From: Takakia lepidozioides | Taxonomy: Eukaryota > Plantae > Bryophyta | Reading direction: 5' to 3' | DNA: 64,000 nucleotides | Assembly: GCA_030704615.1 (NCBI GenBank) | Contig: CM060732.1 | Span: forward strand, 27,962,001 to 28,026,000 | In this document: in pieces, positions 166 through 45,838 of the stretch | Layout of the letters: every line of letters begins with the position of its first letter | How positions within the stretch are numbered: the stretch's first letter is position 1 | The notes under the pieces: model-generated | The model's input: the letters and a program-made list of their open reading frames with translations, nothing else | Told to the model about the DNA's origin: nothing | Databases searched by the model: none | Made by a program: the position numbers and the translations under genes

Positions 166-490
166 TGTCAACACCCCAAGCTATGGGGACTCCACCCCAC
201 AACAACCTATCCTCCCTTCATAAGCATACTCAGCTTCTAAAGCATGAAGGAGCTGCGCGACTGCCGCTCTCGTGAAGATAAGACGGGTCAGGTGTCAAAC
301 TAAACTTGACACCTGATTTAACACTTGACCTAAATCCAAGTGTTAAATACAAATAACTAGCTTTATTCTAGCTAGTTTCACACTGTGCTTATTTAACTTG
401 ACAGCTGTCGTGCGCATACGTATCGCTACACAACTACATCGCTGTCCAAACCACACCACACATATATGCACAATAAAGTAGTCTGCCACA
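166..490 (-). repeat. Candidate 3' LTR of the DNMT-gypsy element
   Basis: On the minus strand it starts TGTGGCAG (490) just after a purine tract and ends GTTGACA (166), giving TG...CA. 172-407 recurs nearly identically at 25376-25645. Confidence 0.6.
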
Positions 491-491
491 A

Positions 492-502
492 TCGCCCCCC
501 TA
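492..502 (-). other. Polypurine tract (PPT) of the DNMT-gypsy element
   Basis: Minus strand TAGGGGGGCGA immediately upstream of the TG that starts the candidate LTR. Confidence 0.55.
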
Positions 503-749
503 GCTGGTGGATAGGTCCCTCTACTCCAGATAGCTACAAGATGTAATAGCCACAGCCGTACTAAGTCCTCTATCACTGTCCCTATTGTACTCAAACTCTA
601 TAGACCAAGAGGCCGGGTACAAGAGTAGCCCCATCGTTAGTCGCCGTCTTGCAATCTGTGAACTTGAGCCAGGACCTCGTGTGTTCAAGGTCTCCTAGTA
701 GCTGGGCCTTGCGTTTCTTGTTAGCCTTCCATGGTTGTATCCACTCCCA

Positions 750-2206
750 CTATCCAATGCAATGTGGACATAACCAATCCCCATCCGGAACCATCTCAAG
801 AGGTGGAGTCAAGCATCCCATATGCCAACCTCTAGAGCATCGATCACACACCAGCATGGTGGCTGCCCCTTTAGCAGACCCACACAACATGCACCTCAAA
901 CCTGCAGATACCACTGCCAGGTTTGGGTCAATCCTGCCATCGACATTCGGAAGGTGACATGGCGCACAATTACGCACATGGTCCTTCCAAGTTATGCCAT
1001 CCCGACCCTCCAAGACCAAGACGCCTGAGGGCAAGACCTCTCGAACCCTCAAAATAACACGTCCTGCAGTCACATCCAGGGTCGTAGGAGCAGTCTGCTG
1101 CAGATAGACATAGTCACCAGGGTTGAATCTCCGAACCCCAGGACGATAGCCCCCACCACGTATGGTAGCATACCTCAACGTATCACGGTGTTGTGCAATG
1201 GCAAGGTTCTCGAAAGCCATGGGCATGACTCTTCTTGAACAACTCTGCACGCTGCTCACATGCACGTGCCCACACGTCCGGATCGTCAAGGTTAAGAACT
1301 GTAGCAGCTTCTCTGCGAATGGATGTAGGCAAATCCGGCTCTCGGCCAAAGAGAAGAAAGTATGGTGAGAAGGAGGCAAGTGATGCTTGCTTGCTGAACC
1401 TGTAGCCCATGGCTAACCAGGGTAACTGAAGGTCCCAATCTCCTAGGTGTCCCTTCTGCAAGCCATACTTGCGCAAACCCCTCTTTACTGTCTGAACAAC
1501 TCTCTCTGCCAAGCCATCGGCCTCAGGATGATCCCGAGAAGTGGTGCGGTGGTCTATCAAGGCCTTGTCACACAAAAACTCCCCCAAGAACTCTCTCCCT
1601 TGGTCCGTGAGTACCTCAGCTGGAGCACCGAATCGGCTAAGCACACAATCCAAGAATGCATACGCAGCTCCCTCACTAGCCTTATCAGGCAATGGAACCA
1701 ATTCAATCCACTTGGAGAAGTGCTCCACCATCACCAACACGTACTTGTTGTGGCGCATGGTCAGTGGCAACGGCCCTGCGAAGTCAAGACTCCACTGTAG
1801 CCCAATCCCATGATCGGAAGAGGGTGCAATTGTGGAGTAGGGGCGTTGAATGAAGCACGCACCCTGTCACACACCATGCACCTAGCCACAAATTTGTGCA
1901 CCTCTGTGTGCATACCACGCCACCATACTGCCCCTGCAGTAGACTATGAGTGCGTCGCACCCCAAAATGCCCCAACTCCTCATGGGCATGCCGCACTAAC
2001 CGTGCCCGCTGTGTTGGGTGAGGCACAATCCTCACTCGACCATCCTCCCACACTCGGAGCAGGTGTGTCCCCTCCCACTTGAACCTTTGGCTCGTTGTAG
2101 GATCCGATCCCTCTCCTTGGCAGTCACAGTGGCTGCATGTCTCCAGTGCGGAGGTAGTCCAACACAACTGAATCCTCATGTATATCTTTGGCGCCACCTT
2201 GCTCAT
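750..2206 (-). pseudogene. Integrase (H2C2 zinc-binding + DDE core) with C-terminal PHD finger (759-893), frameshifted
   Basis: HEELGHFG..C; VEHFSKW, LTDQGREF, ADGLAER core; C4HC3 CMLC..CDRC..WHMGC..WLCPHC. Confidence 0.92.
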
Positions 2207-3780
2207 TGCTGGCCTCAGGGTCCTCAGACACTTGATCTACAGTCATCCCTGTTGCAGGTCCAACCTGGCCTTCCGCTGCCAAGATACACAGAAATGCAGA
2301 TGCATGCCATCCGGGCACCATCTCCTCGTCCGTCTCACCATGCCACCGAGCTCCAGTGTCATCCTGCTGGCTCGTGCATGGATTGCGACTCAACCCATCT
2401 GCATTGCGATTGACCAAACCCGGTCGATGCACCACCTGAAAGTCATACTCTTGAAGGATGAGTGCCCACCGTGCAAGCTTCCCCGTAAGCTTGTCTGACT
2501 CCATCAACCACTTGAGTGGTTGGTGATCCGTGACAAGGGTGAAGAGATTGCCGTATAGATAGCACCTGAAGTGTGCCACGGCCCACACTGCAGCTAAGCA
2601 TTCTCCCTCATATGAGCTATACTTAGACTCTGCAGCATTGTTCGAGCGGCTAGCATAAGCCACTACGAACTCTCTTCCCTCATCATCCACCTGTGTGAGC
2701 ACCGCTCCAAGCCCCAGCATGCTCCAATCTGTATGCAGCTGAAAAGGACGCCCCCTGATAGGTCGTCTCAAGATGGGCGCCGAGGTCAACCTCGCCTTGA
2801 GCTCTTGAAAAGCTTGTTCTTGCTCATCTTCCCACTGCCACTCCTGGTCCACCTTGGTCAGCTTGGTTAGAGCCTTTGCAATGGCACTAAATCCCTTAAC
2901 AAACCGTCTGTAATAGTTTGCTAACCCCATGAAAGCTCGAACTCGGCTCACATCCGTGGGGCGTGGAACCTGTGCAATGGACTCTACCTTAGTCTGCTGT
3001 ACCCCCAATCCTCCAGGATATATCATGTGACCCAGATACTCAATCTGGTTGTGGAAAAACTTGCACTTGCCCGGATGTAACTTCAATCCGTGCGTCCTCA
3101 AGCGCTCAAATACCCCCTGAAGGTGTCTCTCATGCTCCTCCACCGTAGCACTAAAGATGATGATGTCATCTATGTAGCACCGAGCAAACTCCACCCCTGC
3201 TAGAATCCTGTCCATGACTCTTTGAAACTCAGCGGAGCGTTTTTAAGCCCAAATGGTAAGAACCGCCACTGGTATAGGCAATCCTTCCCGTGCTCATTGA
3301 TCCCCCAGAATGCCGTCTTTTGCTTATCCGCCTCCTTGATCGGCAACTGGTGATATCCGGATCGTAAATCCAACGTGCTAAAGACCTTGGAATGCCCAAT
3401 GGCATCAAAGATCTCCTCTGGTGTCGGCATGGCATACCTATCGGACTTGGTCTGACGATTTACAGGCCGGTAATCACCGCACATACGTCTCTCTCCGTCC
3501 AATTGCCATAGACATCCTTCTTGGCTGGCATCACTGTGGCTGAAGCATACTCTCCACCAGAGAGCTCCACCAAACCTGCCTCCCAGAGATCTTGAGTCCT
3601 CATCTGAATCAAAGACCTCTCCATGTCACTGTATCTATAGGGTCTCCGAAAGATTGGCGTGTCAGTGGCCAACTCAATACGGATCTCTTGACCCTTCAGT
3701 GCTCCCAAGTCCTTCAAACTGAAGGCAAAGCAATTCCTGTAAGCCCTCAGGAACCGCCGTATACGTCGTCTCTCTCCTCC
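2124..3780 (-). pseudogene. Reverse transcriptase + RNase H (Ty3/gypsy), frameshifted
   Basis: [33 protein letters not shown]; RNase H HTDWS, GECLA, TDHQPL, ADGLSR. Confidence 0.95.
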
Positions 3781-4159
3781 GGTGACAATGGGTCCAATGT
3801 CAGGCTCCCAATTGTCCTCCGTAACTGCAACCTTAAGTCCAGTGGCTTAGAGGTAGAGGACGCGTCCCGTGGTTGCTATGCTGCAACCTCTGAGCAGTAC
3901 TCCCTTCCTGCTCAGTCAATGACAAGGCCTCATCCTGCCCCATCATCTCATCATTGAGAACCTCCTCATCCCGAGAAGAATCCCCAACCTCATCCATCAC
4001 AGCTGCCTTGGCTGCCAATCCCTCTGAACCTCGAGCACCTCCCACGTGTGCCATGGATGTCTACACCCCGTGGTCCTCACCGCTCGCCCCCACTCGCGCC
4101 TGTACCGTCTCGGTAGGCAGAGAGACCGTCAAGGGAAGTGCACTCCGCACTCTACGTTG

Positions 4160-5110
4160 CTCAGCCATAGCCAAGCTGATAATCCAGGTCAAGCAATTGA
4201 GATCCATTGCTTGCCCCAACACCTGACGACGTGATGCCTCAGAAAGAGAAGGCACCGCCGTGGTCCCAGTGGAAAACCCATAGCCCGCTCTCGCTCGTCG
4301 GCATTAGGCTCTAACTGTTGCAACTGAGCATCCCACAAGGCCAGGTCCACCATCCCGAAAAGCATGGGATCCTGGGAAGCTGAGCAGTGTAGGTAATGCT
4401 GCTCGTGGTTGACCCACCCTGTTGACCACTGCCAAAGGCGAACGGTCATCGTGTCTCACACGTTGAGACTGCCTCCCTGTGTCCAAAATGCCATCCACGG
4501 TGAGGTGTGCTGGCCGCTGCACCCCATCAAATGCACGCTTGAGCAGTGCGGGTGGCATCAAGTTAGTCCACCATAGCGTGGACGATGAGCCCGTGACCCA
4601 CTGCAGCTGCATCCAAGCACTGCTGACCCAAGCCACGACCGGACTTGATGCACACTGGCCATCACCCTGGCCCGAGAATCACCCATCAGTGGCACATTCT
4701 CCAAGATGTATGCTGGAGATACAGCTTGATGAAGCTGCAAGTGGCGCAAAACCCGCACCATCTCCCAAAACAGACCCGTCCTCGAGTCTCGCAATCCATT
4801 GCCATGCCCGGCTGATGAATGCCCTTGGCAGGGCCAACCTGCCACTACAGATCAATGGAGCCAACCTGCTCCAAATCCTGCGCCCCCAGCAACGAAATGT
4901 CTGCTGGCAAGGCTTGTTGGTATCCACGAACTGCAGACACTGGCAACAAATCAGGGTACTGCTGTACCAACTGAGCAACATGGCGCAGTGAGACGCGTCG
5001 TGCAGTCTCATCCCTCTCCACATACAGGTAACGCCTTACCCGCACACCTGCCTGTAGCACAGCAGCCAATCCGGTGCTGATCCCGCCAAACAAGTCCAGA
5101 AGGCAATGCC
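4160..5110 (-). CDS. C5 cytosine DNA methyltransferase, DNMT3-like, inside retrotransposon pol between protease and RT (split by single-base frameshifts)
   Basis: Motif I LDLFGGISTG (~5070-5099), II YLYVERD, III PADI, IV AGWPCQ (Cys codon 4828-4830), VI ILENV (ENV at 4693-4701), VIII AHRPRxWWTN (4562-4590), IX ERERAMGFP (4270-4296), X RRQVLGQAMD (4202-4231). Confidence 0.9.
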
Positions 5111-5489
5111 TTCATCCGGATACTGCCACACAAGGTGTGGTATCCAATGGTGACAACTGAGGTGGTCCTGGTGCAATACCCACTCTCCTCCTCTCTCCTG
5201 ACGGTACAAAGCCTCTACCCAGCTTGTTGCACCCGTCCATCAGCAGCCTGCTGCAAATCCTTGCTCGTACCCCACAATGGAGTGTGAGCAACCATGGCAG
5301 GCAACTCCGCCATACCATGCATGTCATCCTGCTCTGCTGGAGGTGGCACATCCTCTGCATGGGCATTGCCTCCAGCAACTCTCCAGGCCAACTAACTGCA
5401 GCTGTAAAGGCGGCTAGTGTTGGCATCTTGCCCCGCTGGGCAGCCGCAACCCCCAATGAATGTCACAGGGAGCTGTGCACGGCGACCAT

Positions 5490-5860
5490 CCCTGACTGCC
5501 ATCCAGGCCTGTAGGATGCTGACTCCTCCCAAAAGTCCAGGGTGAAGCCCATGGGGTATAACACTGCCCCACCAACGAGGACATCGTAAGAGACCGCGTC
5601 TGTCACAATGGCCTTGGCTCGCATCACTGAGCCATCTTAGGATGATCCGGCTGCAGTCTAATGGCCAACTGATGCCGTGTCATGCCCCGAGCCTGCTCTG
5701 ATCCTCCCAGAGATGTCTGTATCTGGAAAGGACAAGGCTCCATATCCGCCTCCATGAGGCCCAAACCTGCAATAGCAGCTCTGCCCAACATCAGTGGCTG
5801 AGCTCCCGAGTCCAACAAGACCCGCAGTGGCCGGTACTTCTTGCCTGCCGGTCCACTCAA
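5490..5860 (-). pseudogene. Retroviral-type aspartic protease
   Basis: VLLDSGAQP catalytic motif, then YDVLVGG..LYPMGFTLDFW in a shifted frame. Confidence 0.85.
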
Positions 5861-6181
5861 AGTGAAAATGCCTCCTGGTTGTCTAACAAGACAACTCCAG
5901 GTGTCACCATGGCGCGCTCAAGGCAGCTGCAACTTGCCATGGCGCAGCCGTGGCAGTCTTGACCCTCAAATCCGAGGATCCCTCTGCCACTACACCTTCC
6001 ACTAACTCCGCAGAAGATGAAGTGACCTCCCCACTCTCACAGAGTGTTGCTGCTAGTCTGAACACTGCAGCTGGTCTTACCCCCGGCGTCGCAATCATGG
6101 TTGCCGAGAACAGTGGGGCTTGACACACAGAGGTGGCTGCCCCCAACAACACACCGGCTGCACTAGCCTTGGCAGCAGGTG

Positions 6182-7862
6182 TCAGTGCTGCACGTGTAGC
6201 TCTCCCCAATGGCATAGTAACCTCCGCCTCGGTAACAGTCGGGCGAGAACTAGGTGCCATGGATGGCGTCGACACTGTCTCCGCCAAGGTGAATGACTGA
6301 GGCCCCTCGCCTGACGGCTTGCCTCCCCACGTTGTGGATCCAACTCCACCTCTGCACCTCGTGGCTCAGGAACTCGTGCTGCTCCTCGAGTCACGGCTGC
6401 AGCAGACTCCACCTGCTCTAGTGGTAGTGCTGCTCCGCACATGAATCCCATGCCTCCCATATCTCCTCCCTCAGGAGCAGGAGGTGGACCATCCCGCCTG
6501 GGAGCCGGTACCGCCTGAGCTGTAGCCATGGCAGCGAGCCTCTGCTCTAGCTGCTGAAGCCGGTTGGCCATGCCTTGGTCAACACCCTGACCTCCGCGTC
6601 CTTGGCCATGTTGAGCTTGCCCTTGGCCTGCACCTCGTGCCCGACCACCTCGTCCTCTCTGGGCTGGTCCACCTCGCCCCGGCCACCATTGTTCCCTTGG
6701 AACTGGCCTGGGCGCAACTCAGGATGCAAGTCATAACACTGGGCATCTCCATGCCCATACTTGCCACAATGCCCACACTGCAACTGTGCAGGCTGTGCTT
6801 GTGCCGGCCTTTTGCCACTCTCTGGGCAATCTCTTTTGACATGGGGTCCTCCACATGTCCAACATATCACCCCTGGTTGCTGTTGGCCTGCAAAAGATGC
6901 CACGGGCCTCTGCACCTGAGGTCCCCTGTAAGCTCCATGGAACTTGGGCTGGGCAACCTTGCCCCCCTGACCACGCTGTTGGGCAGTCCCTTGTGCCTGT
7001 GGGCTGGCAGCTGCGCCTCGTGCAGGCATGTCCTTGCCAAATCCAATGTAACAACTCGCTCCTCCACCATGTTGAGCTCAATCCGCTCAGCCAGCAGAAA
7101 CACATCTGCTAATGTGGGTTGGGCTGCTTGTAACAGGGTTGCATCTCGCACCCTTCTCTTGAGCTCCTTGTCCAGAATTCCATACCAAAACTGGATTGCC
7201 TGAGCTTCAGTAACCCCTTGGGTCACACTTATCAAGCGCCTCATACGAGTGTACGCCTCTCGCAGGCTCTCACTGGGTTTGCGCTGGAAGTCTTGCAAAA
7301 CTTCGCAGCTTCTCTGTCCGTACACCTTGGTAGTTCCTCCGCAACTCCTGGAAGAACTCCACCACCGGGTTGAATCTAGGCACATGTGTTGTAGTCGTGG
7401 CAGGAGGAGTAGTAGCACCTTTTGAACTGGTACCACCTGCAGAAGTACCGGCACTACTTGCTCCACTACTAGTGCTGGCAGTGGGAGATTTGGTACTGAT
7501 GCAGCTACTGGTCGCGTCGTGCCTCGAGTAATGGAGACGTAGTCAGGTGACCAATACATCCTCCACTCCTCAATCCTGCTTCATGTCCTCGCCTGAACTC
7601 GTGGTAATCGTCCATAGGCGGGCCTTCCAAATGCTGGAACAGTCCCTTCCACGCCATGAATGGGGTGAATAGCTGTGGATTGCGCATCTGCTGCAAATCA
7701 CACCAGCTGTCGACTCCTGGATAAAGTCATCCAACTCGATTGTGCCCACAGCTCCAGAGTACCTACGAGGCCCCTTGGTAGCTCCATACATCTCCTCCAT
7801 GTCGTCCCACAACAATGGCGAATGAAACTGCACACCTGTTGATGAAGCCTCCGAGTCTGTGT
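6182..7862 (-). pseudogene. gag (main part) with two CCHC zinc knuckles
   Basis: YSGAVGTIELDDFIQE, FQRKPSESLREAYTRM (retrotrans_gag-like); CWTCGGPHVKRDC and CGHCGKYGHGDAQC. Confidence 0.85.
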
Positions 7863-7867
7863 CTGAC

Positions 7868-8542
7868 TGTCGCGCACCTCACTTCGGTAAGCTCCCCTTC
7901 AAGTCATAGTTACTCGCTTTGATGCGCGGGCCACTTGGCTCGGCTGCTCACCGGGATAACGGTCCCCTTTGCTCCCAAAACCCTCCACCTTTTGGCCTAG
8001 TGGAATTCCCTTTGGTAGATGGCAGTCCGGAACAGCTCCTCTTTGGTCGCTTTCCGGCTCGCTCGCTTACTCACTAGTTTTTGGTCACCAACGGGCTTGC
8101 ACCGTTCTCGGGGTTACTACTCCCTTATATATACTTCTGTAGCTGTCCGCGGGGGTTTCACAACCAGCCATGCCATTTTATGGCGAACCACACGAAAACC
8201 CTCGACTCCCGGTGATGAGTCGCGGTGAGTCTTGGCCCACTCACCACGGCCCCTATGGACCGTGATGAGTCCCAAGACTCCCCACGACTCCCACCACGAG
8301 GTCTCCGCCCCCATGGTGAGTCCTATGCCACCCCCACTAAGTCCCGCTAAGCTACCACCACCCTTTGTGGAGCCACCCCCACCGCAACCCGGTGTCCACC
8401 TAGTGAGCGCCTCCGCCTCCTTGAGTGCCTTGGGCACTCAAGGGTGCTTCAGCCCCCCATACCTATCGCTGCCGCTGCCCCACCACAGGGGCAGCCCCTC
8501 ATGTGTCCCGACCCCCTGCCCTCAAGGCAAAGGGCCGCGACA
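7868..8542 (-). repeat. 3' LTR of outer chromovirus
   Basis: Homologous to 20859-21585; preceded on the minus strand by purine-rich GGTAGGGGTGTG (8543-8554). Confidence 0.93.
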
Positions 8543-9447
8543 CACACCCCTACCAACAGGGAGTCGATGTCCTCATCGACTTGTCCATTTTGTAGAAACG
8601 AACATCCAAGTTGTGGCGTCCCACATCAAGGAGTTTGTTTCCGTACCATGGCGTCCCATGGCAAAGAACCAAACCCCACACTTGACTCTACTCTCCACTA
8701 GCTAGTTCGGCCGACTTCCTCCAAGTCCCGGCCAAGGGTGGAGCCTCCCAGCTCCTCCCAGTGCACTCTTCTTGGCCTACTTCAAGGCCAAGGAACGATC
8801 CTCCCCGAGGATCGAATCGCCTTACTGCAACAACATTGCTTGCGACCGCTCATGATGCCGCTTTTGGCATCACCTTGAGCAAGGGTTCACCTGGAACCCT
8901 CTTTGACTAGGAAGATAACCTTGAACCAACCGTGCGCCCCAATCACTACAATTGGGTCCGCCTTGGAATGCTGGCCTGAGGTACGGGAACACGCCGAAGC
9001 CGCACTACGACTTCGTCCCGAGGCTACACGATTATAGTACGTGAACGGAAGCACGTAGCTTCCGCGTTAGCCCGCACTACAAGGCAACCCCCGGTAGCGC
9101 AGTTATAGTACGCGCACGCGCCAGGTGCGCACTAGCACGTGAACTCCCAAAGAAGGCGCAAGTTTCCTTGCCCCTTGGATGGGGGTCACCCGATTTCGGC
9201 ACTACGCAAACACACGATTAACCCAATTTACCTCTCCCACTTTTGTATAAGCTAGCATGCATTCTACACACTAGCCAACCACACCATGCATCACCATTCC
9301 AAACAAAATAGGACGCACAACATTTGGAACCCATTTCCTTTATAACAAATTTTTGTACAATACAAGTTTTTGCAATCGGATTCCTAAGCTAGCTAAGCCG
9401 GGCTAAGCATGCATTTCCTCCCCCACGCTCCAAGGTTGATGTCCCCA

Positions 9448-11336
9448 TCAACGCTTCTTCCGCTTTTGAGGTCGCCCTTCGAAAGCTGCAACCGCCTCGG
9501 ATGCGTTTCCCATTTCTGAGGCACGCACCCAAGATGCCTCCACATGATGATAGCCCTTCCATTTGACGAGATACTCCGTTTCTCGGTTCTTGAACCTCCT
9601 CGACTTAAGTATTGCCTCCACCTCGTACTCAGGTTCATTTTCATGATCCAACAGCATAGGTGGCGGACGCAACACTTGATGCCGATTCGGACGCGCTTCA
9701 TCTTTGAAGTAAGGCTTCAAAAGGGAGACATGGAATACTGGGTGCACCTTGCTGTTTGCCGGCAGCTCCAATTCATACACATCCTCATTCATAACCTTCC
9801 GAATGCGAAAGGGTCCCGCATACGGAGGTACGAACTTTGGACTCACTTCCGGAGGTAGTCGGAAATTCTTGATGTTCAACCAGACCTCTGTGCCTGCCTC
9901 AAACTTCACTTCCCTCCGCTTTCCGATTCGCCTGCCTTTCATACCGTTTCCTAGCTTTGGCAATGTTGTACTTTGCGAGCTTCAACAAACGCTCGCGTTC
10001 TTCCAGTACCGCCGCTACTGCCGGTTCCTCAACGTCCTGGGCGGCCCAACTTGTCGGCACCAGAGGTGCTTTTCCATAGACCAATACGAAAGGGGAAACT
10101 CCCGTTGCGGAGTGTTCTGTGTTATTATAACAGAACTCTGCCGCGTCTAAGTGTTCCACCAGTCTGTTTGGTCTGCCGACACGTAATTCCGCAAGATCTG
10201 CTTCACTACGGAATTCACTCTTTCTGTTTGGCCGTCGGTCGTAGGTCGGAAGGCGGTGCTCATCTTCAGCCTCGTCCCCATCTTCTTCCAAAGTCCCTCC
10301 AAAATTTACTCGTAAACTTTGGATCGCGGTCCGAGACAATATCCTTCGGGACTCCATGATGCTTTAAGACGTGGGCGAAGTAAAGTCGCCCTGTCTCCTG
10401 CGCCGTTGCCCTCTCCTTGGTGGGATGAAATGGCCCATTTTACTGAACCTATCCACCACCACCATGATTGCATCGAATCCTTTTGACAGCGGCATAGCAG
10501 TCATGAAATCCATCGAGACGCTTTCCCAAGTCCCTCTGGAATCGGCAAGGGTTGTAACAGCCCCGCTTGCTTTTTGTACTCGCTCCGGTTTTGTTGGCAT
10601 GTGGTGCATGTCTTGACATACTCCTCTGCCTCCTCCCTCAGTTTGGGCCAGAAATACTCTTTCTTCAAGAGTGCCGCGGTGCGCTTGGCTCCGCCGTGGC
10701 CCGCAAGCGGGCTATCATGGCATTCTCTCAAGAGACTATCTCTGATCCCTCCCTTCGGCACGTAGAGACGCTTTTGCTTATACCGGAGCAGTCCATTTTG
10801 CAAGTGGAACTGCGATTTAACCCATCCTCAAGTCCTGCATCACGGACTTCGCCAGCTCATCCTTCCGGCAAGCCTTCCGGATCTTCTTTGGAGCGCCGTC
10901 TCGCCCTTGTACACCAACAAGAGCTGCTGCTTTCTACTTAAAGCATCGGCCACCACGTTGTCCGTCCCGGTTTGTACTGGATATCCACGTCGAACACTGC
11001 CAAAGTATCTTGCCACCTAAGTTGTTTTGGGGACAACTTGGGCTGCGTGGCAAAATACTTCACCGTGACATTGTCCGTGAACACCTTCACTGGGTTGGAA
11101 CCAACATAGTGGCGCCAAAGCTCAAGCAGTGCCTTCATCTCTTTTCGTGCGTCGGCCACCGTCGCTCACTTCATTCAGTTTCTTACTTTCGTAAGCCACT
11201 GGACGTCCATCTTGCATAAGAACACCCCCAATCGCGAAGTCCGACGCATCTGTATGATCTCGAACGGACGATCGAACTCCGGGATTTTCAAGACTCGAGC
11301 TTCGCTTCAATTCAGCAAAGCTTGGCCATAAAGGTG
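9448..11336 (-). pseudogene. Outer chromovirus RNase H - integrase - chromodomain, frameshifted
   Basis: HTDASDFAIGG, CHDSPLAGH, VDRFSKM, HPVFHVSLLKP; chromodomain EYEVEAIL..YLVKWKGY..SW. Confidence 0.92.
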
Positions 11337-12047
11337 ACCCTTTGGCTTGAGGGCAGGGAGGTCGGGACTCAAGAGGGCTGCCCCTGTGGTGGGGGCAGTG
11401 GCAGCGATAGGGGGGCTGAAGCACCCTTGAGTGCCCAAGGCACTCAAGGAGGCGGAGGCGCTCACTAGGTGGAGCCCCGCACACCGGGTTGCGGGGGTGG
11501 CTCCACAAGGGGTGGTGGTAGCTTAGCGGGACTTAGTGGGGGTGGCATAGGACTCACCATGGGGGCGGAGACCTCGTGGTGGGAGTCGTGGGAGTCTTGG
11601 GACTCATCACGGTCCATAGGGGCCGTGGTGAGCGGGCCAAGACTCACCGCGACTCATCACCGGAGTCGAGGGTTTTCGTGGTGGTTCGCCATAAAATGGC
11701 ATGGCTGGTTGTGGAAACCCCCGCGGACAGCTACAGAAGTATATATAGGGAGTAGTAACCCCGAGAACGGTGCAAGCCCGTTGGTGACCAAAAACTAGTG
11801 AGTAAGCGAGCGAGCCGGAAAGCGACCAAAGAGTGGGGAGCTGTTCCGGACTGCCATCTACCCAAAGGGAATTCTCCTAGTCCCAAATAGGTGGAGGGTT
11901 TAGAGGGAAGCGAAGGGGGACCGTTATGTCCCGGTGAGCAGCCGAAGCTCCAAGTTGGCCCGGCGGCCAGGTTGGGAGTCAGGCGCGCGCATCAAAGCGA
12001 GTAACTATGACTTGAAGGGGAGCTTACCGAAGTGAGGTGCGCGACAC

Positions 12048-15000
12048 TTGGTATCAGAGCTTAGAGTTCAGTACGCGATCGTCCTTGGGATTGGCCTCAT
12101 CATGGGGTCGGGCAAGCCGAAGCGAAAGCGGAACGGCCCAAAAGATGATGATCCCGGTGAGCCCGATGGGGGCGACGTGTCACCGAGGCGGCCGTTTGAG
12201 GAAGCGATGCATGTTTCCGAAAACGAGGCCGCTCAAGAGCGGGAGGAATCCGAGGAGTCGGAGCCCGAGGAATCCTTGAGAGCTCCGACAAACCAAGAGA
12301 TGCCTCCCATGCCGGCAGCCTTTTGGGAAGGGTTGTTGGCGCAGTTTGGCGGGACGTTGAAAGACGTGTTGAAGGCGGCTAATGCCACTTCCACTAAGGC
12401 AAAGTTTAAGGTGAAGCCTAAGGAACCCGGCACCTTCGAGGGCGTCCGAAATCGGAAGGCACTCAACACCTGGCTCTTGGAGCTAGAGCAGTACTTCCGG
12501 GCGGCCAAGTTGAGTGACGAGGATCGGGTGGAAGTGGCTCCCACCTATTTGAGGGGCTATGCTCAACAATGGTGGCAGAAACGCCTTCACGACCGAGGTC
12601 CAAGCCGGAAACCTTGAACTGGAGTGGGTTCAAGGAATTGATGAAGAGACAGTTTGTGCCCCTCAACGCGTCCTGGCTTGCCCGGGACAAGATGAGGAAT
12701 TTGAAGCAAACAGATGACATTCGGGGGTATGTCCAGCTTTCAATGTGCTGTTGCTCGAAGTCGCGGACATGGCAGAACCAGAAATGGTCTTCAACTTTGT
12801 GGCGGGACTGGCCCCATGGGCCAGGCGGAAGTTGGAGGAGAAGCCACCCAAGACTTTGAACGAGGCAATTGAGAGGGCTGAATGTTTCTCGGATGTCCCT
12901 AGGGGTGAAAGACAAGGCCGTACGGAGCTGAACCACAAGAAGACCGGCGGGAAGGTGACTCCTTCCGACCGGAAAAGAAGTGGGATAGGCCACGCGGCGA
13001 CAATGGGCACGTGGAAATCGAAGGGAGGGCCTTCACACGTCAAGGCGGCACCCGGTGCTTCGAAAGGAAAAGCGGGTGGAGCGGCTTATGGCGGACAGAA
13101 GGCGACCTTTGATGGAGTGTGTTTCAATTGCGGGGAGCCCGGGCACATGGCCAAGAAGTGCACGAAGCCCCGGCAATTGAACATGACTCGGGCGACCACG
13201 GAGCTGTCGGAAGATACCATCAGTCGCTTGGTGGAAGCGGTGGTCGCCAGGACTTGCAAGGTAGGCAAATTTTTCTTGTGAGTTGTATCAGGAAACTGGC
13301 GCCTTACGAAAAGGGAGTCAGTTATTGTTCGTGGATGGGATAATATCCGGAACTAATGTGTCGTTGTTGGTGGACACAGGAGCGTCGCACTCCTTCATGA
13401 CACCGGCAACGGCACAAAAGCTGGGACTCCCGACAAGTGACGTGGGGGCCTCTATTGAGGTGCGTTCTGCCAAAGGAGAACCACAGTTGGCGACAAGGTT
13501 GGCGTTTGATGTTCCTCTTCAACTGGGGAGTTGGGAGGACGTGAGAACTTCACCATCTGCGAGATCGATGGAGTGGATCTCATTTTGGGGATGACCTTTT
13601 TGAGCAAATCCGGAGCGGTCATAGATGGCCGCAAGAGAGTAGTCACGCTGCCATGTGGGAATGGTGGCGAGGTCTTACGAGTGTCGGAAACGCCCAAATC
13701 CGTGGAGGGCGAATAAACCTTCTGTCAGCAAGGGAGTGGGCCGTGGAGGAGGCACACGAGCCCCAGTTTTTGCTTTACATTAGAGAAGTGAAGGAGAAGG
13801 CGATGGGGAGCCGAGCCCAGATTGGATCAAGGGATTTTGGAGAAATACCAGGATGTGATGCCGGAGGATTTACCAAGCGGCTTGCCACCGCGAAGAGGAG
13901 TTGACCACAAGATTGAGGTGATACCGGGATCGGAACCGCCTGCCAAGGCGCCCTACCGGTTGAGCCACAGAGAGTTGGTCGAGCTGAAGACTCAGCTCAA
14001 GGATCTAATGTCAAAGGGGTACATCCGGCCGAGTAAGTCACCTTACGGAGCCCCGGTGCTATTTGCAGACAAGAAGGATGGGACGCTGCGGATGTGTGTC
14101 GATTACAGGGCTCTGAATAAGGTGACTATCAAAAACCGGTACCCTTTGCCAAGGATCGACGACCTCTTCGATCGGTTGGCAGGAGCGAAGTATTTCAGCC
14201 GGATCGACTTGCGCTCCGGCTATCATCAAATTCGGGTGGCGGAAGGAGATGAGGAGAAGACCGCGTGCAGGACAAGGTATGGTTCATATGAGTTCTTGGT
14301 GATGCCTTTTGGGCTCACCAATGCACCAGCGACATTTAGCACGCTGATGAACAGCCTTTTTCAGGAGTGGTTGGATGACTTTGTGATCGTGTACATCGAC
14401 GACATCTTGGTGTACTCGAAAACAAAGAGGAGCACCTGGAGCACCTCAAAAGGGTGTTCCAAAAATTGCGGGAAGGGAAGCTGTACCAAAGCTTCAAAAT
14501 GCGAATTCGGGGTCACAAAAGTGGAGTTCTGGGGCATGTGATTACACAGGATGGGATCAAAATGGATGACAGAAAGGTGAGGGCGATCTTGGACTGGGAG
14601 CCTCCGACTTCGGTCCCCGGGAGTGCGATCCTTCCTAGGACTCGCCTCCTATTACCGGAAGTATGTGAGAAATTTCGCCAAGATCGCGGGGCCGCTGTCG
14701 GACCTTCTGTGTAAATCCAAAGTCTGGGTATGGAACACTTTTGTGGCCAAGCTTTTGCTGAATTGAAGCAGCGGATGGCGGAAGCTCCAGTCTTGAAAAT
14801 CCCGGAGTTCGATCGTCCGTTTGAGATTCATACAGATGCGTCGGACTTCGCGATTGGGGGTGTACTTATGCAAGATGGACGTCCAGTGGCTTACGAAAGT
14901 AAGAAACTGAATGAAGTGGAGCGACGGTGGCCGACGCACGAAAAAGAGATGAAGGCGGTGGTGCATTGCCTTGAGCTTGGCGCCACTATGTTGGTTCCAA

Positions 15001-16640
15001 CCCAGTGAAGGTGTTCACGGACAATGTCACAGGAAGTATTTTGCCACGCAGCCCAAGTTGTTGTCCCCAAAACAACTTAGGTGGCAAGATACTTTGGCGG
15101 TGTTCGACGTGGATATCCAGTACAAACCGGGACGGGACAACGTGGTGGCCGATGCTTTAAGTAGAAAGCAGCAGCAGCTCTTGTTGGTGTACAAGGGCGA
15201 GACGGCGCTCCAAAGGAAGATCCGGAAGGCTTGCCGGAAGGATGAGCTGGCGAAGTCCGTGATGCAGGACTTGAGGATGGGGGTTAAATCGCAGTTCCAC
15301 TTGCAAAATGGACTGCTCCGGTATAAGCAAAAGCGTCTCTACGTGCCGAAGGGAGGGATCAGAGATAGCCTCTTGAGAGAATGCCATGATAGCCCGCTTG
15401 CGGGCCACGGCGGAGCCAAGCGCACTGCGGCACTCTTGAAGAAAGAGTATTTCTGGCCCAAACTGAGGGAGGAGGCAGAGGAGTATGTCAAGACATGCAC
15501 CACATGCCAACAAAACCGGAGCGAGTACAAAAAGCAAGCGGGGCTGTTACAACCCTTGCCGATTCCAGAGGGGACTTGGGAAAGCGTCTCGATGGATGGA
15601 TTTCATGACTGCTATGCCGCTGTCAAAAGGATTCGATGCAATCATGGTGGTGGTGGATAGGTTCAGTAAAATGGGCCATTTCATCCCCACCAAGGAGACG
15701 GCAACGGCGCAGGAGACAGGGCGACTTTACTTCGCCCACGTCTTAAAGCATCATGGAGTCCCGAAGGATATTGTCTCGGACCGCGATCCAAAGTTTACGA
15801 GTAAATTTGGAGGCACTTTGGAAGAAGATGGGGACGAGGCTGAAGATGAGCACCGCCTTCCGACCTACGACGGACGGCCAAACGGAAAAAGTGAATTCCG
15901 TAGTGAAGCAATCTTGCGGAATTACGTGTCGGCAGACCAAACAGACTGGTGGAACACTTAGACGCGGCAGAGTTCTGTTATAATAACACAGAACACTCCG
16001 CAACGGGAGTTTCCCCTTTCGTTGGTCTATGGAAAAGCACCTCTGGTGCCGACAAGTTGGGCCGCCCAGGACGTTGAGGAACCGGCAGTAGCGGCGGTAC
16101 TGGAAGAACGCGAGCGTTTGTTGAAGCTCGCAAAGTACAACATTGCCAAAGCTAGGAAACGGTATGAAAGGCAGGCGAATCGGAAGCGGAGGGAAGTGAA
16201 GTTTGAGGCAGGCACAGAGGTCTGGTTGAACATCAAGAATTTTTGACTACCTCCGGAAGTGAGTCCGAAGTTCGTACCTCCGTATGCGGGACCCTTTCGC
16301 ATTCGGAAGGTTATGAATGAGGATGTGTATGAATTGGAGCTGCCGGCAAACAGCAAGGTGCACCCAGTATTCCATGTCTCCCTTTTGAAGCCTTACTTCA
16401 AAGATGAAGCGCGTCCGAATCGGCATCAAGTGTTGCGTCCGCCACCTATGCTGTTGGATCATGAAAATGAACCTGAGTACGAGGTGGAGGCAATACTTAA
16501 GTCGAGGAGGTTCAGAACCGAGAAACGGAGTATCTCGTCAAATGGAAGGGCTATCATCATGTGGAGGCATCTTGGGTGCGTGCCTCAGAAATGGGAAACG
16601 CATCCGAGGCGGTTGCAGCTTTCGAAGGGCGACCTCAAAA
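12048..16640 (+). pseudogene. Inner chromovirus gag-PR-RT-RH-IN-chromodomain polyprotein, many single-base frameshifts
   Basis: CFNCGEPGHMAKKC, VDTGASH, YIDD, TDASD, H2C2 zinc-binding, DRFSK, chromodomain EYEVEAIL. Confidence 0.93.
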
Positions 16641-17528
16641 GCATTGATGGGGACATCAACCTTGGAGCGTGGGGGAGGAAATGCATGCTTAGCCCGGTTT
16701 AGCTAGCTCAGGAATCCGATTGCAAAAACTTGTATTGTACAAAATTTGTTATAAAGGAAATGGGTTCCAATATTGTGCGTCCTATTTGTTTGGAATGGTG
16801 ATGCATGGTATGGTTGGCTAGTGTGTAGAATGCATGCTAGCTTACAAAGTGGGAGAGGTAAATTGGGTTAATCGTGTTTGCGCAGTGCCGAAATCGGGTG
16901 ACTCCCATCCAAGGGGCAAGGAAACTTGCGCCTTCTTTGGGAGTTCACGTGCTAGTGCGCACCTGGCGCGTGCGCGTACTATAACTGCGCTACCGAGGGG
17001 TTGCCTTGTAGTGCGGGCTAACCGTTCACGTACTATAATCGTGTAGCCTCGGGACGAAGTCGTAGTGCGGCTTCGGCGTGTTCCCGTACCTCAGGCCAGC
17101 ATTCCAAGGCGGACCCAATTGTAGTGATTGGGGCGCACGGTTGGTTCAAGGTTATCTTCCTAGTCAAAGAGGGTTCCAGGTGAACCCTTGCTCAAGGTGA
17201 TGCCAAAAGCGGCATCATGAGCGATCGCAAGCAATGTTGTTGCAGTAAGGCGATTCGATCCTCGGGGAGGATCGTTCCTTGGCCTTGAAGTAGGCCAAGA
17301 AGAGTGCACTGGGAGGAGCTGGAGAGGCTCCACCCTTGGCCGGGACTTGGAGGAAGTCGGCCGAACTAGCTAGTGGAGAGTAGAGTCAAGTGTGGGGTTT
17401 GGTTCTTTGCCATGGGACGCCATGGTACGGAAACAAACTCCTTGATGTGGGACGCCACAACTTGGATGTTCGTTTCTACAAAATGGACAAGTCGATGAGG
17501 ACATCGACTCCCTGTTGGTAGGGGTGTG

Positions 17529-18169
17529 TGTCGCGGCCCTTTGCCTTGAGGGCAGGGGGTCGGGACACAAGAGGGGCTGCCCCTGTGGTGGGGGCAGTGG
17601 CAGCGATAGGTACGGGGGCTGAAGCACCCTTGAGTGCCCAAGGCACTCAAGGAGGCGGAGGCGCTCACTAGGTGGAGCCCCGCACACCGGGTTGCGGTGG
17701 GGGTGGCTCCACAAGGGGTGGTGGTAGCTTAGCGGGACTTAGTGGGGGTGGCATAGGACTCACCATGGGGGCGAAGACCTCGTGGTGGGAGTCGTGGGTT
17801 TTCGTGGTGGTTCGCCATAAAATGGCATGGCTGGTTGTGAAACCCCCGCGGACAGCTACAGAAGTATATATAAGGGGAGTAGTGACCCCGAGAACGGTGC
17901 AAGCCCGTTGGTGACCAAAAACTAGTGAGTAAGCGAGCGAGCCGGAAAGCGACCAAAGAGTGGGGAGCTGTTCCGGACTGCCATCTACCAAAGGGAATTC
18001 TCCTAGTCCCAATAGGTGGAGGGTTTAGGGAAGCGAAGGGGGACCGTTATGTCCCGGTGAGCAGCCGAAGCTCCAAGTTGGCCGGGCGGCCAGGTTGGGA
18101 GTCAGGCGCGCGCATCAAAGCGAGTAACTATGACTTGAAGGGGAGCTTATCGAAGTGAGGTGCGCGACA
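17529..18169 (+). repeat. 3' LTR of inner chromovirus
   Basis: TGTCGCGGCCC...GTGCGCGACA after GGTAGGGGTGTG; lacks about 80 bp present in the 5' LTR. Confidence 0.92.
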
Positions 18170-20857
18170 TGTTCCATGCCCAGACTTTAGATTTACACAG
18201 AAGGTCTGACAGCGGCCTCGCGATTTTGGCGAAATTTCTCACATACTTCCGTAATAGGAGGCGAGTCCTAGGAAGGATCGCACTCCCGGGACCGAAGTCG
18301 AGGCTCCCAGTCCAAAATTGCCTCACCTTTCTGTCATCCATTTTGATCCCATCCTGTGTAATCACATGCCCTAAGAACTCCATTTCGTGACCCCGAATTC
18401 GCACTTTGAAGCTTTGGCGTACAGCTTCCCTTCCCGCAACTTTTGGAACACCCTTTTGAGGTGCTCCAGGTACTCTTCCTTTGTTTTCGAGTACACCAAG
18501 ATGTCGTCGATGTACACGATCACAAAGTCATCCAACCACTCCTGAAAAAGGCTGTTCATCAGCGTGCTAAAGGTTGCAGGTGCATTGGTGAGCCCAAAAG
18601 GCATCACCAAGAACTCATATGAACCATACCTTGTCCTGCACGCGGTTCTTCCTCATCTCCTTCCGCCACCCGAATTTGATGATAGCCGGAGCACAAGTCG
18701 ATCCGGCTGAAATACTTCGCTCTTGCCAACCGGTCGAAAAGGTCGTCGATCCTTGGCAAAGGGTACCGGTTTTTAATAGTCACCTTATTCAAGGCCCTGT
18801 AATCGACACACATCCGCAGCGTCCCATCCTTCTTGTCTGCGAATAGCACCGGGGCTCCGTAAGGTGACTTACTCGGCCGGATGTACCCCTTTGACATTAG
18901 ATCCTTGAGCTGAGTTTTCAGCTCGACCAACTCTCTGTGGCTCAACCAGGGCGCCTTGGCGCGGTTCCGATCCCGGTATCACCTCAATCTTGTGGTCAAC
19001 TCCTCTTCGCGGTGGCAAGCCGCTTGGCAAATCCTCCGGCATCACATCATGGTATTTCTCCAAAATCCCCTTGATCCAATTTGGGCTCGGCTCTCCATCG
19101 CCTTCTCCCTTCACTTCTCTAATGTATAGCAAAAACTGGGGCTCGTGTGCCTCCTCCACGGCCCACTCCCTTGCTGACAGAAGGTTTATTCGCCCTCCCA
19201 CGGGTTTGGGCGTTTCCGAAACTCGTAAGACCTCGCCACCATTCCAACATGGCAGCGTGACTACCCTCTTGCGGCCATCTATGACCGCTCCGGATTTGCT
19301 CAAAAAGGTCATCCCCAAAATGAGATCCACTCCATCGATCTCGCAGACGGTGAAGTTCTCACGTCCCTCCCAACTCCCCAGTTGAAGAGGAACATTGAAC
19401 GCCAACCTCGTCGCCAATTGCGGTTCTCCTTTGGCAGGACGCACCTCAATAGAGGCCCCTACGTCACTTGTCGGGAGTCCCAGCTTTTGTGCCGTTGCCG
19501 GTGTCATGAAGGAGTGCGACGCTCCTGTGTCCACCAACAATGACACGTTAGTTCCGGATATTATCCCATCCACGAACAATAAGTGACTCCCTTTATGCAA
19601 TGCGCCAGTTTCCTGATACAACTCACAAGAATATTTGCCTACCTTGCAAGTCCTGGCGACCACCGCTTCCACCAAGCAACTGATGGTATCTTCCGACAGC
19701 TCCGTGGTTGCCCGAGTCATGTTCAATTGTCGGGGTTTCGTGCACTTCTTGGCCATGTGCCCGAGCTCTCCGCAATTGAAACACACTCCATCAAAGGTCG
19801 CATTCTGTCCGCCATAAAGCGCTCCACCCGTTTTTCCTTTTGAAGCACCGGGTGCCGCCTTGACGTGTGAAGGCCCTCCCTTCGATTTCCACGTGCCATT
19901 GTTGCCACGTGGCCTATCCCACTTCTTTTCCGGTCGGAAGGAGTCACCTTCCCGCCGGGTCTTCTTGTGGTTTAGCTCCGTACGGCCTTGTCTTTCACCC
20001 CTAGGGACATCTGAGAAACATTCAGCCCTCTCAATTGCCTCGTTCAAAGTCTTAGGTGGCTTCTCCTCCAACTTCCGCCTGGCCCATGGGGCCAGTCCCA
20101 CCACAAAGTTGAAGACCATTTCCAGTTCTGCCATGTCCGCGACTTCGAGCAAAAGCACATTGAAAGCCTGGACATATCCCCGAATGTCGTCTATTTGCTT
20201 CAAATTCCTCATCTTGTCCCGGGCAAGCCAGGACGCGTTGAGGGGCACAAACTGTCGCTTCATCAATTCCTTGAACCCACTCCAGCTCAAGGTTTCCGGA
20301 CTTGGACCTCGGTCGTGAAGGCGTTTCTGCCACCATTGTTGAGCATAGCCCCTCGAATAGGTGGGAGCCACTTCCACCCGATCCTCGTCACTCAACTTGG
20401 CCGACCGGAAGTACTGCTCTAGCTCCAAGAGCCAGGTGTTGAGTGCCTTCCGATTTCGGACGCCCTCGAAGGTGTCGGGTTCCTTAGGCTTCACCTTAAA
20501 CTTTGCCTTAGTGGAAGTGACATTAGCCGCCTTCAACACGTCTTTCAACGTCCCGCCAAACTGCGCCAACAACCCTTCCCAAAAAGTTGCCGGCATGGGA
20601 GACATCTGTTGGTCTGTCGGAGCTCTCAGGGATTCCTCGGGCTCCGACTCCTTGGATTCCTCCCACTCTTGAGCGGCCTCATTTTCAGAAACCTGCATCG
20701 CTTCCTCAAACGGCCGCTTCGGTGACACGTCGCCCCCATTGGGCTCACCAGGATCATCATCTTTTGGGCCGTTCCACTTTCGCTTTGGCTTGCCCGACCC
20801 CATGATGAGGCCAATCCCAAGGACGATCGCGTACTGAACTCTAAGCTCTGATACCAA
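18170..20857 (-). pseudogene. Outer chromovirus gag-ZF-protease (662 aa open) and RT
   Basis: [47 protein letters not shown]. Confidence 0.93.
20845..20856 (-). other. Primer binding site, tRNA-iMet
   Basis: TGGTATCAGAGC, 2 nt after the 5' LTR end. Confidence 0.92.
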
Positions 20858-20858
20858 G

Positions 20859-21585
20859 TGTCGCGCACCTCACTTCGGTAAGCTCCCCTTCAAGTCATAG
20901 TTACTCGCTTTGATGCGCGCGCCTGACTCCCAACCTGGCTGCCCGGCCAACTTGGAGCTTCGGCTGCTCACCGAGACATAACAGTCCCCCTTCGCTCCCC
21001 CACTAAACCCTCCACCTCTTTGGGCCTAGTGGAATTCCCTTTGGTAGATGGCAGTCCGGAACAGCTCCCCACTCTTTGGTCGCTTTCCGGCTCGCTCGCT
21101 TACTCACTAGTTTTTGGTCACCAACGGGCTTGCACCGTTCTCGGGGTCGCTACTCCCCTTATATATACTTCTGTAGCTGTCCGCGGGGTTTCACAACCAG
21201 CCATGCCATTTTATGGCGAACCACCACGAAAACCCTCGACTCCCGGTGATGAGTCGCGGTGAGTCTTGGCCCACTCACCGCGGCCCATATGGACCGTGAT
21301 GAGTCCCAAGACTCCCCACGACTCCCACCACGAGGTCTCCGCCCCCATGGTGAGTCCTATGCCACCCCCACTAAGTCCCTAAGCTACCACCACCCCTTGT
21401 GGAGCCACCCCCACCGCAACCCGGTGTGCGGGGCTCCACCTAGTGAGCGCCTCCGCCTCCTTGAGTGCCTTGGGCACTCAAGGGTGCTTCAGCCCCCCCA
21501 TACCTATCGCTGCCGCTGCCCCCACCACAGGGGCAGCCCCTCATGTGTCCCGACCCCTGAGCCCTCAAGGCAAAGGGCCGCGACA
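20859..21585 (-). repeat. 5' LTR of outer chromovirus
   Basis: TG...CA ends, adjacent PBS, flanking TSD. Confidence 0.93.
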
Positions 21586-21739
21586 CTGACTCTGCACTAG
21601 TTGAGGGTGGAAGTGAAGGTGGTCTGAAACGAACACCTCGTCTGGTGAACCCACTCTCACTGCTACTGCCTGTAGCCGTACTCCCCTCAGAACTTCTGGG
21701 TAACTCCGTGATGACACTCACAATGTGCACCTCCCCCAC
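21586..21739 (-). pseudogene. N-terminal part of the same gag, separated by the chromovirus insertion
   Basis: SGFTRRGVRFRPPS joins across the CTGAC TSD to SDTDSEAS..PLLWDDMEE. The uninterrupted version is seen at 25646-25993. Confidence 0.85.
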
Positions 21740-22248
21740 GTGACACTATAAGGCTCTATTACTAATTCTAATAATGACACGGGTAGGCACCTGCTGCAGT
21801 TTAAGGGTCATATTCCAATGGCTCAGGGCACCTGCACCTGCATCCACCGCAAGAACTCCTATGGTTGGCTGGTCATCAACCCAGCCTCACCATAGAAGAA
21901 ACACTGGTGGTCTTGCTGGTCATCACTCCAGCCTCACCACCGACAACATACTCTAGGATTGACCGGTGATCAAATCCGGCCTAATCCCTATGAAAGCAAG
22001 CGCCCACACAAAACCAACATGATGCACAGTCAAACATGCAGGTGTTGGGGGGGATCCAAACACAAGAAATCAAAACATCAACACCCCCACACCAAAATCC
22101 GGCTGCAATGCTATTCCTGCAGAATAGCCCAGCCCAAAACCCCGAACTGACTGGCCTCCACCAAGAGAGGCTTTGGCAACTACAAGTACAAGGTAATGAA
22201 AATAGTACAGAGATGGAGGGGAAGAATAGAAGCCCGACCAAGCAAGAT

Positions 22249-25375: not shown

Positions 25376-25645
25376 CACCCCAAGCTATGGGGACTCCACC
25401 CCACAACAACCTATCCTCCCTTCATAAGCATACTCAGCTTCTAAAGCATGAAGGAGCTCGGTCGCGCAGGCTCAACTCGAGAGAGATGAGCTGCGCGACT
25501 GCCGCTCTCGTGAAGATAAGACGGGTCAGGTGTCAAACTAAACTTGACACCTGATTTAACACTTGACCTAAATCCAAGTGTTAAATACAAATAACTAGCT
25601 TTATTCTAGCTAGTTTCACACTGTGCTTATTTAACTTGATAGCTG
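25376..25645 (-). repeat. Partial LTR-like copy (candidate 5' LTR of the DNMT-gypsy element)
   Basis: Near-identical to 172-407 plus a 34-bp segment between GAGCT repeats; lacks canonical ends. Confidence 0.6.
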
Positions 25646-45364: not shown

Positions 45365-45625
45365 AGTAGACTGAATTTAAACTCAGTGGGGGTAAGCCTA
45401 TCTGACCCACTGTCGTAATTGAAGAATCCATGACAAAACCAAGTTGTGTTGCAACTGACTCCCTCCTCTCTCTGAAAATCTAAACTGTCCGGGGTTTTCT
45501 AAGCAGACAGACCCTCTTGTCAAATCTACCAAGGGAATTCTGCCTGTACCTTTGTTGACCAAACAATGTGGGCGCGGGGTCAATGGGCACGGCAAACATA
45601 GGCAAACAACATCTTGGGAGTACAC
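45365..45625 (+). mobile_element. Short diverged LINE 3' fragment related to 33738-34440
   Basis: Shared GTAGACTGAA.TTTAAACTCAG, CTGTCCGGGGTT, CAAGGGAATT.TGCCTGTACC and GGGGTCAATGG blocks. Confidence 0.65.
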
Positions 45626-45838
45626 TCATTCTTACAAGTACAATTTCATGTTGAAAGATCTGACAAGAAAGTCTCGCTGCTTAAAAAAACGTTTTTCACT
45701 AAATCAATAAGTTGAAGAAGAGGTGCCATCAACACCACCCAACCTGCTAACTTCCAGAAATTCAACATGCAATTGACAGGGCCGAGTCTGATGAGAGGGT
45801 AAAACAGGCTGCAATACGTCATCGAAGAAGGTGCCCAC

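Follow-up and report, generated by a model that had tools for sequence, protein, structure and literature searches.

The window analysed here, a stretch of 64,000 nucleotides of Takakia lepidozioides (contig CM060732.1, positions 27,962,001 to 28,026,000), carries on its minus strand a decayed copy of a Ty3/gypsy retrotransposon family. The first open reading frame of this element (ORF1) comprises gag, a protease (PR) and a cytosine methyltransferase (DNMT). It is followed by an in-frame stop codon continued by CAA-C, and then by reverse transcriptase (RT), RNase H (RH), integrase (IN) and a PHD finger. The gag-PR-RT-RH-IN order of Ty3/gypsy elements was found in the window element as well as in its relatives. 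All features are summarized in Table 1.

Table 1. Features of the methyltransferase-bearing element, listed by position in the window
Feature	Position	Strand	Evidence or remark
Repeat A2, starts TGTCA, cut at 172	172..403	-	matches A1
Repeat B1, ends CGACA	406..492	-	B repeats of L065 and L072 share 77-81% with it over 47-77 nt
Polypurine tract; moss-type relatives have nearly the same one	493..510	-	
PHD finger at integrase C-terminus	750..900	-	PF00628 E 3.5e-11
Integrase: H2C2 finger and rve core, frameshifted	960..2236	-	PF17921 E 9.8e-5; PF00665 E 2.4e-11
Reverse transcriptase and RNase H, frameshifted	2400..3846	-	PF00078 E 1.2e-11 and 2.6e-15; PF17917 E 1.4e-36
Putative long stem-loop directly 3' to the stop codon	3760..3865	-	suggestive only
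Conserved stop TAG then CAA CCA, ending ORF1; candidate readthrough signal	3870..3878	-	junction comparison
DNMT3-type C5 cytosine methyltransferase domain, motifs I-X	4190..5111	-	five frameshifts; translation, PF00145, PDB, fold, frameshift-aware alignment
Aspartic protease, DSG motif	5636..5893	-	52% to Marchantia P0007; PF13650 E 0.012, below cut-off
gag, frameshifted, with capsid-like part and Cys/His knuckles	6305..7867	-	tblastn with Marchantia P0007; PF03732 weak, E 0.17
Nested chromodomain Ty3/gypsy block, unrelated, without DNMT	7868..21585	.	Chromo PF00385 E 4.9e-13
Leader and 5' end of gag	21586..22248	-	79% like older copy at 26117-26470
276-codon open frame in the family's leader, Cys-rich start	22249..23079	-	high depth
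Low-copy insert in 5' leader with SURNod19 host-gene fragment (24306-24731)	23370..25140	-	PF07712 E 1.8e-21
Repeat A1 (5' terminal), starts TATCA (relatives TGTCA)	25340..25641, lower end approximate	-	matches 172-407 at 87%

The nested block interrupts gag with a target duplication CTGAC, and the gag frame resumes at 21586. Sequencing depth was used only to separate repeated from low-copy stretches and not as a copy number. The leader was of high depth up to ~23200, as was the stretch 25340-25733, while the depth of the insert at 23370-25140 was far below that of the flanking stretches. The SURNod19 fragment in this insert is possibly a captured piece of a host gene. The open frame in the leader gave no Pfam match, no atlas match of at least 0.9 and no match in the 80 metagenome loci described below. 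Repeat A1 is embedded in gag sequence from an older related copy. Its reading as the far repeat of the same element is an interpretation, with the two ends lying 25 kb apart. Pieces of older DNMT-family copies (25642-26470 and 1-171) flank the element at both ends, so that the element may have landed in a member of its own family.

A search of the window for a canonical LTR pair found none. The repeats seen were A1, B1 and a cut A2 that is joined at 172 to the 3' tail (1-171) of another related copy; B2 lies outside the window. Positions 13-200 aligned to 565-750 with a score of 102 (best of 300 shuffles ≤36). Among the relatives, split repeats in the order A-coding-B-A-B with TG...CA ends were found in L024, L065, L070, and L072. 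A-coding-B only was found in L025, L027, L039, L051, and L062, and the other loci were cut by contig ends. A 4-bp target duplication was exact in L024 (TCTC) and L072 (CATA), had one mismatch in L070 and was unclear in L065. The family therefore has TG...CA ends, a polypurine tract and a short target duplication, the latter read in relatives and not visible for the window copy, but split repeats instead of the one pair of complete LTRs of Ty3/gypsy elements. Short inverted repeats were observed within terminal repeat A (288-348 and 353-374).

Other repeats were also recorded in the window. Several young chromodomain Ty3/gypsy copies (7868-21585, 27110-29188, 61945-62711) lie in part head to head, forming long inverted repeats. 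CACTA transposase fragments were seen at 29083-30111, 49560-50087, 59248-59739, and 61412-61807, two of them with Transposase_21 and DUF4216 matches. Together with the SURNod19 fragment and a 'plant metagenome' sequencing run that contains half of the sampled words, they point to a plant host, and the trees described below make a bryophyte likely. A 704-codon open frame without Pfam match next to a SWIM-finger frame (54372-56486 and 57198-57926, plus strand) possibly belongs to a Mutator-like element. Additionally, a 449-codon frame with a NIF/FCP1-like phosphatase domain (36028-37377, plus strand, E 2.1e-15) lies among transposon fragments, and an array of ~103-bp units spans 45339-47681.

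The first-pass annotation had placed a DNMT3-like cytosine methyltransferase between protease and RT on the same strand, and this assignment was confirmed. Six-frame translation of minus-strand positions 5111-4190 revealed the C5-methyltransferase motifs I, II, IV, VI, VIII, IX, and X in canonical order across several frames: DLFGG (~5096), YVERDE, WPCQ with the cysteine at ~4830, ENV (~4701), AHRPR (~4587), ERAMGF (~4290), and RQVLG (~4231). The domain lies between the protease (LLDSGAQ) and the start of RT. In the PF00145 search that had been proposed as a check, the piece 4558-4851 matched with E 1e-10 (42 bits vs a cut-off of 22), while the remaining three of the four DNMT pieces gave no match when searched singly. 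Frameshift-aware alignment located five frameshifts (near 5107, 4850, 4575, 4336, and 4272), no in-frame stops inside the window domain, and all twelve of the twelve motif residues checked. The window copy is thus decayed and cannot make the methyltransferase protein.

An unbroken natural relative, P0002, which is 81% identical to the window over the motif I-III piece, was used for further classification. Its best PDB sequence match was human DNMT3A (E 6e-12), followed by DRM2 (1.6e-4) and M.HhaI (~4e-3). A structure model of P0002 was built from a 60-row alignment (pLDDT 93), and every Foldseek match listed for this model was a DNMT3A, B, or C chain (best E 2e-18, TM 0.66/0.83). By its motifs, its sequence and the predicted fold, which was modelled for P0002 and not for the broken window copy, the domain is classed as a DNMT3-type methyltransferase. 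The CpG observed/expected ratio was ~0.5 in the element and 0.33-0.73 elsewhere in the window, the nested family excepted; the depletion resembles that of the surroundings and therefore says nothing about self-methylation.

A search with the motif I-III piece returned 74 longer proteins among 458 candidates. The full-length matches were mostly 63-84% identical, and the named ones came from Marchantia polymorpha, Calypogeia fissa, and Sphagnum. M. paleacea and Riccia sorocarpa were found in addition by a profile search (best 120 of 277 matches); over Marchantia, Riccia, Calypogeia, and Sphagnum, identity is about 65-85%. Hypothetical genes of Marchantia polymorpha, e.g. Mp4g09160 and Mp8g17980, represent gag-PR-DNMT frames that are unbroken; for five Marchantia gene ids, no paper was found. 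The DNMT served as the seed in all three homologue searches. Metagenome loci were likewise fetched by the DNMT (best 80 of 127 stretches), so that they cannot show how many family copies lack the domain, and among the loci long enough to show it, 50 of 55 have PR upstream of the DNMT, 43 of 52 have RT downstream, and 19 of 23 have the PHD. In sequencing runs of the host, contigs covered 30/30 bins in three runs and 29/30 in a fourth. Contigs of all four runs span the DNMT and its neighbours, and none of the 15 joints listed (98 further joints are unlisted) removes the DNMT alone. Judged from these loci, the DNMT is a feature of the family and not a peculiarity of the window copy.

Amino acid change in the DNMT was far below synonymous change. 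Between the window and 26 chosen loci, pN was 0.20 and pS 0.75, with synonymous sites saturated; pN was 0.15 in RT (23 loci) and 0.145 in the integrase (13 loci). Within the main moss-type family, in which dead copies decay, dN/dS was higher for the DNMT (0.55) than for RT (0.39) and the integrase (0.38), which weighs against the model given below. Among 200 distant full-length domains (<60% identity), the catalytic cysteine was kept in 197, the motif VI glutamate in 199, and each motif VIII arginine in 198. The low pN at saturated pS supports purifying selection on the DNMT. Retention of the domain across copies and species, conserved catalytic motifs and dN/dS<1, to which the checks of the first-pass annotation refer, were found, with the order PR-DNMT-RT in dozens of loci and several named species.

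The same data bear on two alternatives. As the window copy is heavily broken and nested with other elements, a host gene captured only once or a chimeric assembly could be suspected. The probability of either is practically nil, given the same order and spacing in dozens of loci of several named species and the contigs of four runs spanning the DNMT; homologues, locus order and selection results refute it. A second alternative is that the DNMT is retained not for DNA methylation but for another function, such as nucleic-acid binding or methylation of the RNA genome. It would fit with the domain of the Klebsormidium nitens element KnitGypsy-Dnmt3, which had no activity in yeast, a result its authors call inconclusive (de Mendoza et al. 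2018, PMC5890265), and with motif IV, in which the proline before the cysteine is replaced by glutamate in 82 of the 200 distant domains. However, the cysteine, the motif VI glutamate and both arginines are nearly invariant, and sequence and fold are closest to DNMT3 and not to DNMT2, which makes a role of this kind improbable.

Comparison of 44 distinct junctions between DNMT and RT revealed a stop codon at a fixed place in 41 of them (26 TAG, 15 TAA), in addition to the window. Of the other three, two have sense codons and one was not located. The stop lies ~13 codons before the RT match, and CAA-C continues after its position in all 43 located junctions (CAA CCC in 40 of 43; CAA CCA in the window and two loci). 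DNMT and RT matches share one frame in 36 of 49 loci. Only a single in-frame codon parts the two frames, and the sequence to either side of it has stayed coding. For comparison, background decay amounted to 78 stops in 8568 DNMT codons. One RT column has stops in 42% of the aligned copies, so that frequent stops can also arise by decay. The single open PR-DNMT-RT frame that the first-pass annotation had proposed as a test was not borne out. Of its description as an LTR retrotransposon with a DNMT "within pol", the order PR-DNMT-RT stands and the common open frame does not; the PHD finger after the integrase and the split terminal repeats are further features that it had not named.

At the protein level, the ends of 37 PR-DNMT proteins were compared: 25 end 62-186 residues past the domain, among them Marchantia and Calypogeia models as well as families only ~50% identical; 11 end within 32 residues of the domain and are probably truncated; and one runs on. 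The close outgroups P0383, P0088, and P0389 have PR-DNMT-RT in one frame, and the stop is therefore not needed for the role of the domain.

The broader readthrough consensus is CARYYA. Readthrough of a leaky UAG in plants requires that the next base is C, with CAA UYA given as the type I context (PMC2754532). With CCA or CCC as second codon, the context of the element departs from the CAA UYA consensus. The simplest reading of the junction is readthrough of a leaky stop. Alternatively, ORF2 could be made by reinitiation or by splicing, with the rest of the model below unchanged. Reinitiation would be allowed by an ATG that the moss-type family has at +7, two codons behind the CAA, and in Ogre elements a spliced region parts gag-PR from RT (PMC6317226). 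At the place of the ATG, however, L069 has GTG and the window CGG, and the gap of one in-frame codon, the coding sequence kept on both sides and the invariant CAA-C argue against both routes, which we regard as rather unlikely. For the possible stem-loop 3' of the stop, 93% of the cells were paired and 7 of 29 pairs were changed on both sides. As the structure was drawn from the same 10 sequences and its folding z-scores (-0.4 to -2.8) were within the control range, it is not counted as evidence.

The distribution of the family was also explored beyond bryophytes. With HMMER, 269 proteins at E ≤1e-30 were retrieved from 1.84 billion representatives. Among 356 proteins (near-identical members counted), 54 have the order RT-RH-DNMT-IN-PHD and 37 the order PR-DNMT. 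In chlorophytes (Chromochloris, Haematococcus, Cymbomonas), the DNMT lies after RNase H and before the integrase, whereas it follows the protease in Closterium and in K. nitens GAQ93235.1 (P0146). P0383 encodes PR-DNMT-RT-RH-IN-PHD in one frame, and in the RT tree the bryophyte group had its cluster representative P0269 as sister, with a support of 86. Some RH-DNMT-IN-PHD polyproteins (P0130, P0183, P0091) also have a G-patch or Tudor domain.

Trees were calculated with FastTree, for which every second unnamed RH-DNMT row was dropped, and with IQ-TREE for 35 rows; the DNMT trees did not include the Symbiodinium row. The window fell into a 100/100 clade with liverwort and moss-type rows, and the chlorophyte type formed a 99/95 clade. 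Element domains and K. nitens P0146 formed one clade (100/100) against an outgroup of two ant DNMT3 only, without plant host DNMT3 or DRM, which leaves the deep order and the position of P0146 unsettled. A relation to a Klebsormidium Gypsy protein is suggested by P0146, which shares both the domain order and the DNMT clade. L004, the only main-family locus in the trees, grouped with Sphagnum proteins. P0282, which also belongs to the clade, is probably a binning contaminant; its NCBI name assigns it as a cytosine methyltransferase to an Obscuribacterales bacterium MAG. RT identity between the window and liverwort copies was ~80%, which is high for such distant hosts, so that horizontal transfer among them is possible.

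Nearly all long relatives combine a PHD with the DNMT. The window PHD matched CHD4, PHF12, KDM5A/B, and ATXR5 in the PDB. The fingers of these proteins are readers of unmodified H3K4, a mark that is also read by the ADD domain of DNMT3.

From the sequence comparisons, which establish the identity and order of the domains, their conservation, the stop with CAA-C, the PHD finger, the split repeats and the wide range, we derived a model of how the element may work. At the end of gag-PR and before a probably leaky stop, the DNMT would be made and packaged with Gag, at coat-protein levels, and would methylate the cDNA in the particle; as a whole, this model is somewhat favoured. Readthrough of the stop at a few to tens of percent would likely yield the RT-RNase H-integrase-PHD part. 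Just as probably, the DNMT, fused to Gag-PR, would be cut free by the protease of the element and packaged. It is slightly favoured that the DNMT would then be in excess where cDNA is made and would set 5mC on it before integration. Guidance of integration by the PHD finger into chromatin with unmethylated H3K4 is an even call. A new copy might thereby arrive already methylated where methylation is normal, as camouflage or as self-limiting silencing.

The DNMT might also act in the nucleus and not in the particle. Excess ORF1 product would then methylate the insertion site or other copies in trans, and the PHD would place the integrase. The stop uncouples the DNMT from RT, leaving most of it not tied to the RT polyprotein, and the co-occurrence of PHD and DNMT would be in keeping with nuclear action. 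However, packaging is favoured by the fusion to Gag, the DNMT has no targeting domain next to it, and its place between RNase H and integrase in 54 proteins fits action on cDNA. Nuclear action has a small but appreciable chance. We consider methylation of cDNA within the particle the most probable, followed by action in the nucleus and, last, by a function that is not DNA methylation.

A broader reading, which we offer tentatively and regard as the less probable side of the question, is that of an ancient Ty3/gypsy lineage with a DNMT3-type writer and a PHD reader that predates the chlorophyte-streptophyte split. The writer would have moved between two positions in the polyprotein, and land plants would have put it before a leaky stop, such that particles loaded at Gag stoichiometry could deliver pre-methylated cDNA to H3K4-unmethylated chromatin. 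If true, the catalytic-plus-ADD logic of DNMT3 has been rebuilt inside a transposon, and Marchantia, a model liverwort, carries it.

The benefit that a transposon draws from a cytosine methyltransferase of its own has been a question since 2018. The earlier hosts were hard to work with, and the only Gypsy domain tested so far was the one inactive in yeast (PMC5890265). With the family in Marchantia polymorpha, methylomes, mutants, and reporters can be applied, and the conserved stop yields a concrete prediction on stoichiometry. The range over chlorophytes, Klebsormidium, Closterium, liverworts, and Sphagnum would make a single-species oddity a green-plant lineage. Furthermore, such copies can inflate DNMT counts in bryophyte annotations.

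In the literature searched, retrotransposon DNMT3 was found only in PMC5890265 and papers citing it (PMC12344493 and a 2026 preprint on EpiLTRs). Neither the range over land plants and chlorophytes nor the stop or the PHD pairing was found there, and supplementary trees and repeat libraries may hold bryophyte or chlorophyte copies. No such element is described in the available text of PMC12885004, PMC9985172, PMC10952607, PMC6317226, and bioRxiv 2021.11.30.470311; the words 'PHD' and 'methyltransferase' are absent from the main text of PMC6317226, which covers the REXdb lineages.

Several known systems share single traits with the element. Host DNMT3 proteins of non-flowering plants (PpDNMT3a/b) have a DNMT3-type catalytic domain with canonical motif order, but they carry a C-terminal DUF3444 and occur outside polyproteins (PMC6453930). 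Among the homologue matches listed, no plant host DNMT3 was present. The type I leaky stops of TMV and BNYVV similarly have UAG then CAA, but their second codon is UYA, whereas the element has CCA or CCC and its stop follows the methyltransferase at the end of gag-PR (PMC2754532). The EpiLTRs of Euglena and Cymbomonas also combine a cytosine methyltransferase and a chromatin reader in an LTR element; unlike the element, they have a chromodomain, DAM and a DNMT sister to DNMT4 (bioRxiv 10.64898/2026.05.21.726589). Their authors consider EpiLTRs distinct from streptophyte Gypsy-DNMT3, and the text of the preprint leaves bryophytes, Marchantia, and Sphagnum unmentioned. SymbioDIRS-Dnmt3 has a DNMT3-type domain in a retrotransposon polyprotein and split repeats, and its domains performed de novo CG methylation in yeast (PMC5890265). 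It is, however, a tyrosine-recombinase element of dinoflagellates, and the single Symbiodinium match in our searches (P0275) was weak (E 5.5e-9).

The closest system is KnitGypsy-Dnmt3 of Klebsormidium nitens, in which Gypsy domains are combined with an unrearranged DNMT3-related domain under purifying selection and, according to the legend of Fig. 4c, with DIRS-like repeats (PMC5890265). The element has in common with it the unrearranged DNMT3-related domain in a Gypsy polyprotein, the DIRS-like split repeats and purifying selection. GAQ93235.1, which we infer to be a copy of KnitGypsy-Dnmt3, has the same knuckle-protease-DNMT order and falls into the same clade. In KnitGypsy-Dnmt3, reported from one alga, the DNMT is ~37% identical to the land-plant type and lies in one ORF with RT and RNase H, whereas in the element a stop separates them. 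A PHD is unmentioned in the text of PMC5890265, while the element has one after the integrase. The element is probably a land-plant relative of KnitGypsy-Dnmt3 that lacks the one-ORF feature. Going by the sources above, the kind was known before from one alga, and its occurrence in land plants and chlorophytes, the stop codon and the pairing with PHD are additions.
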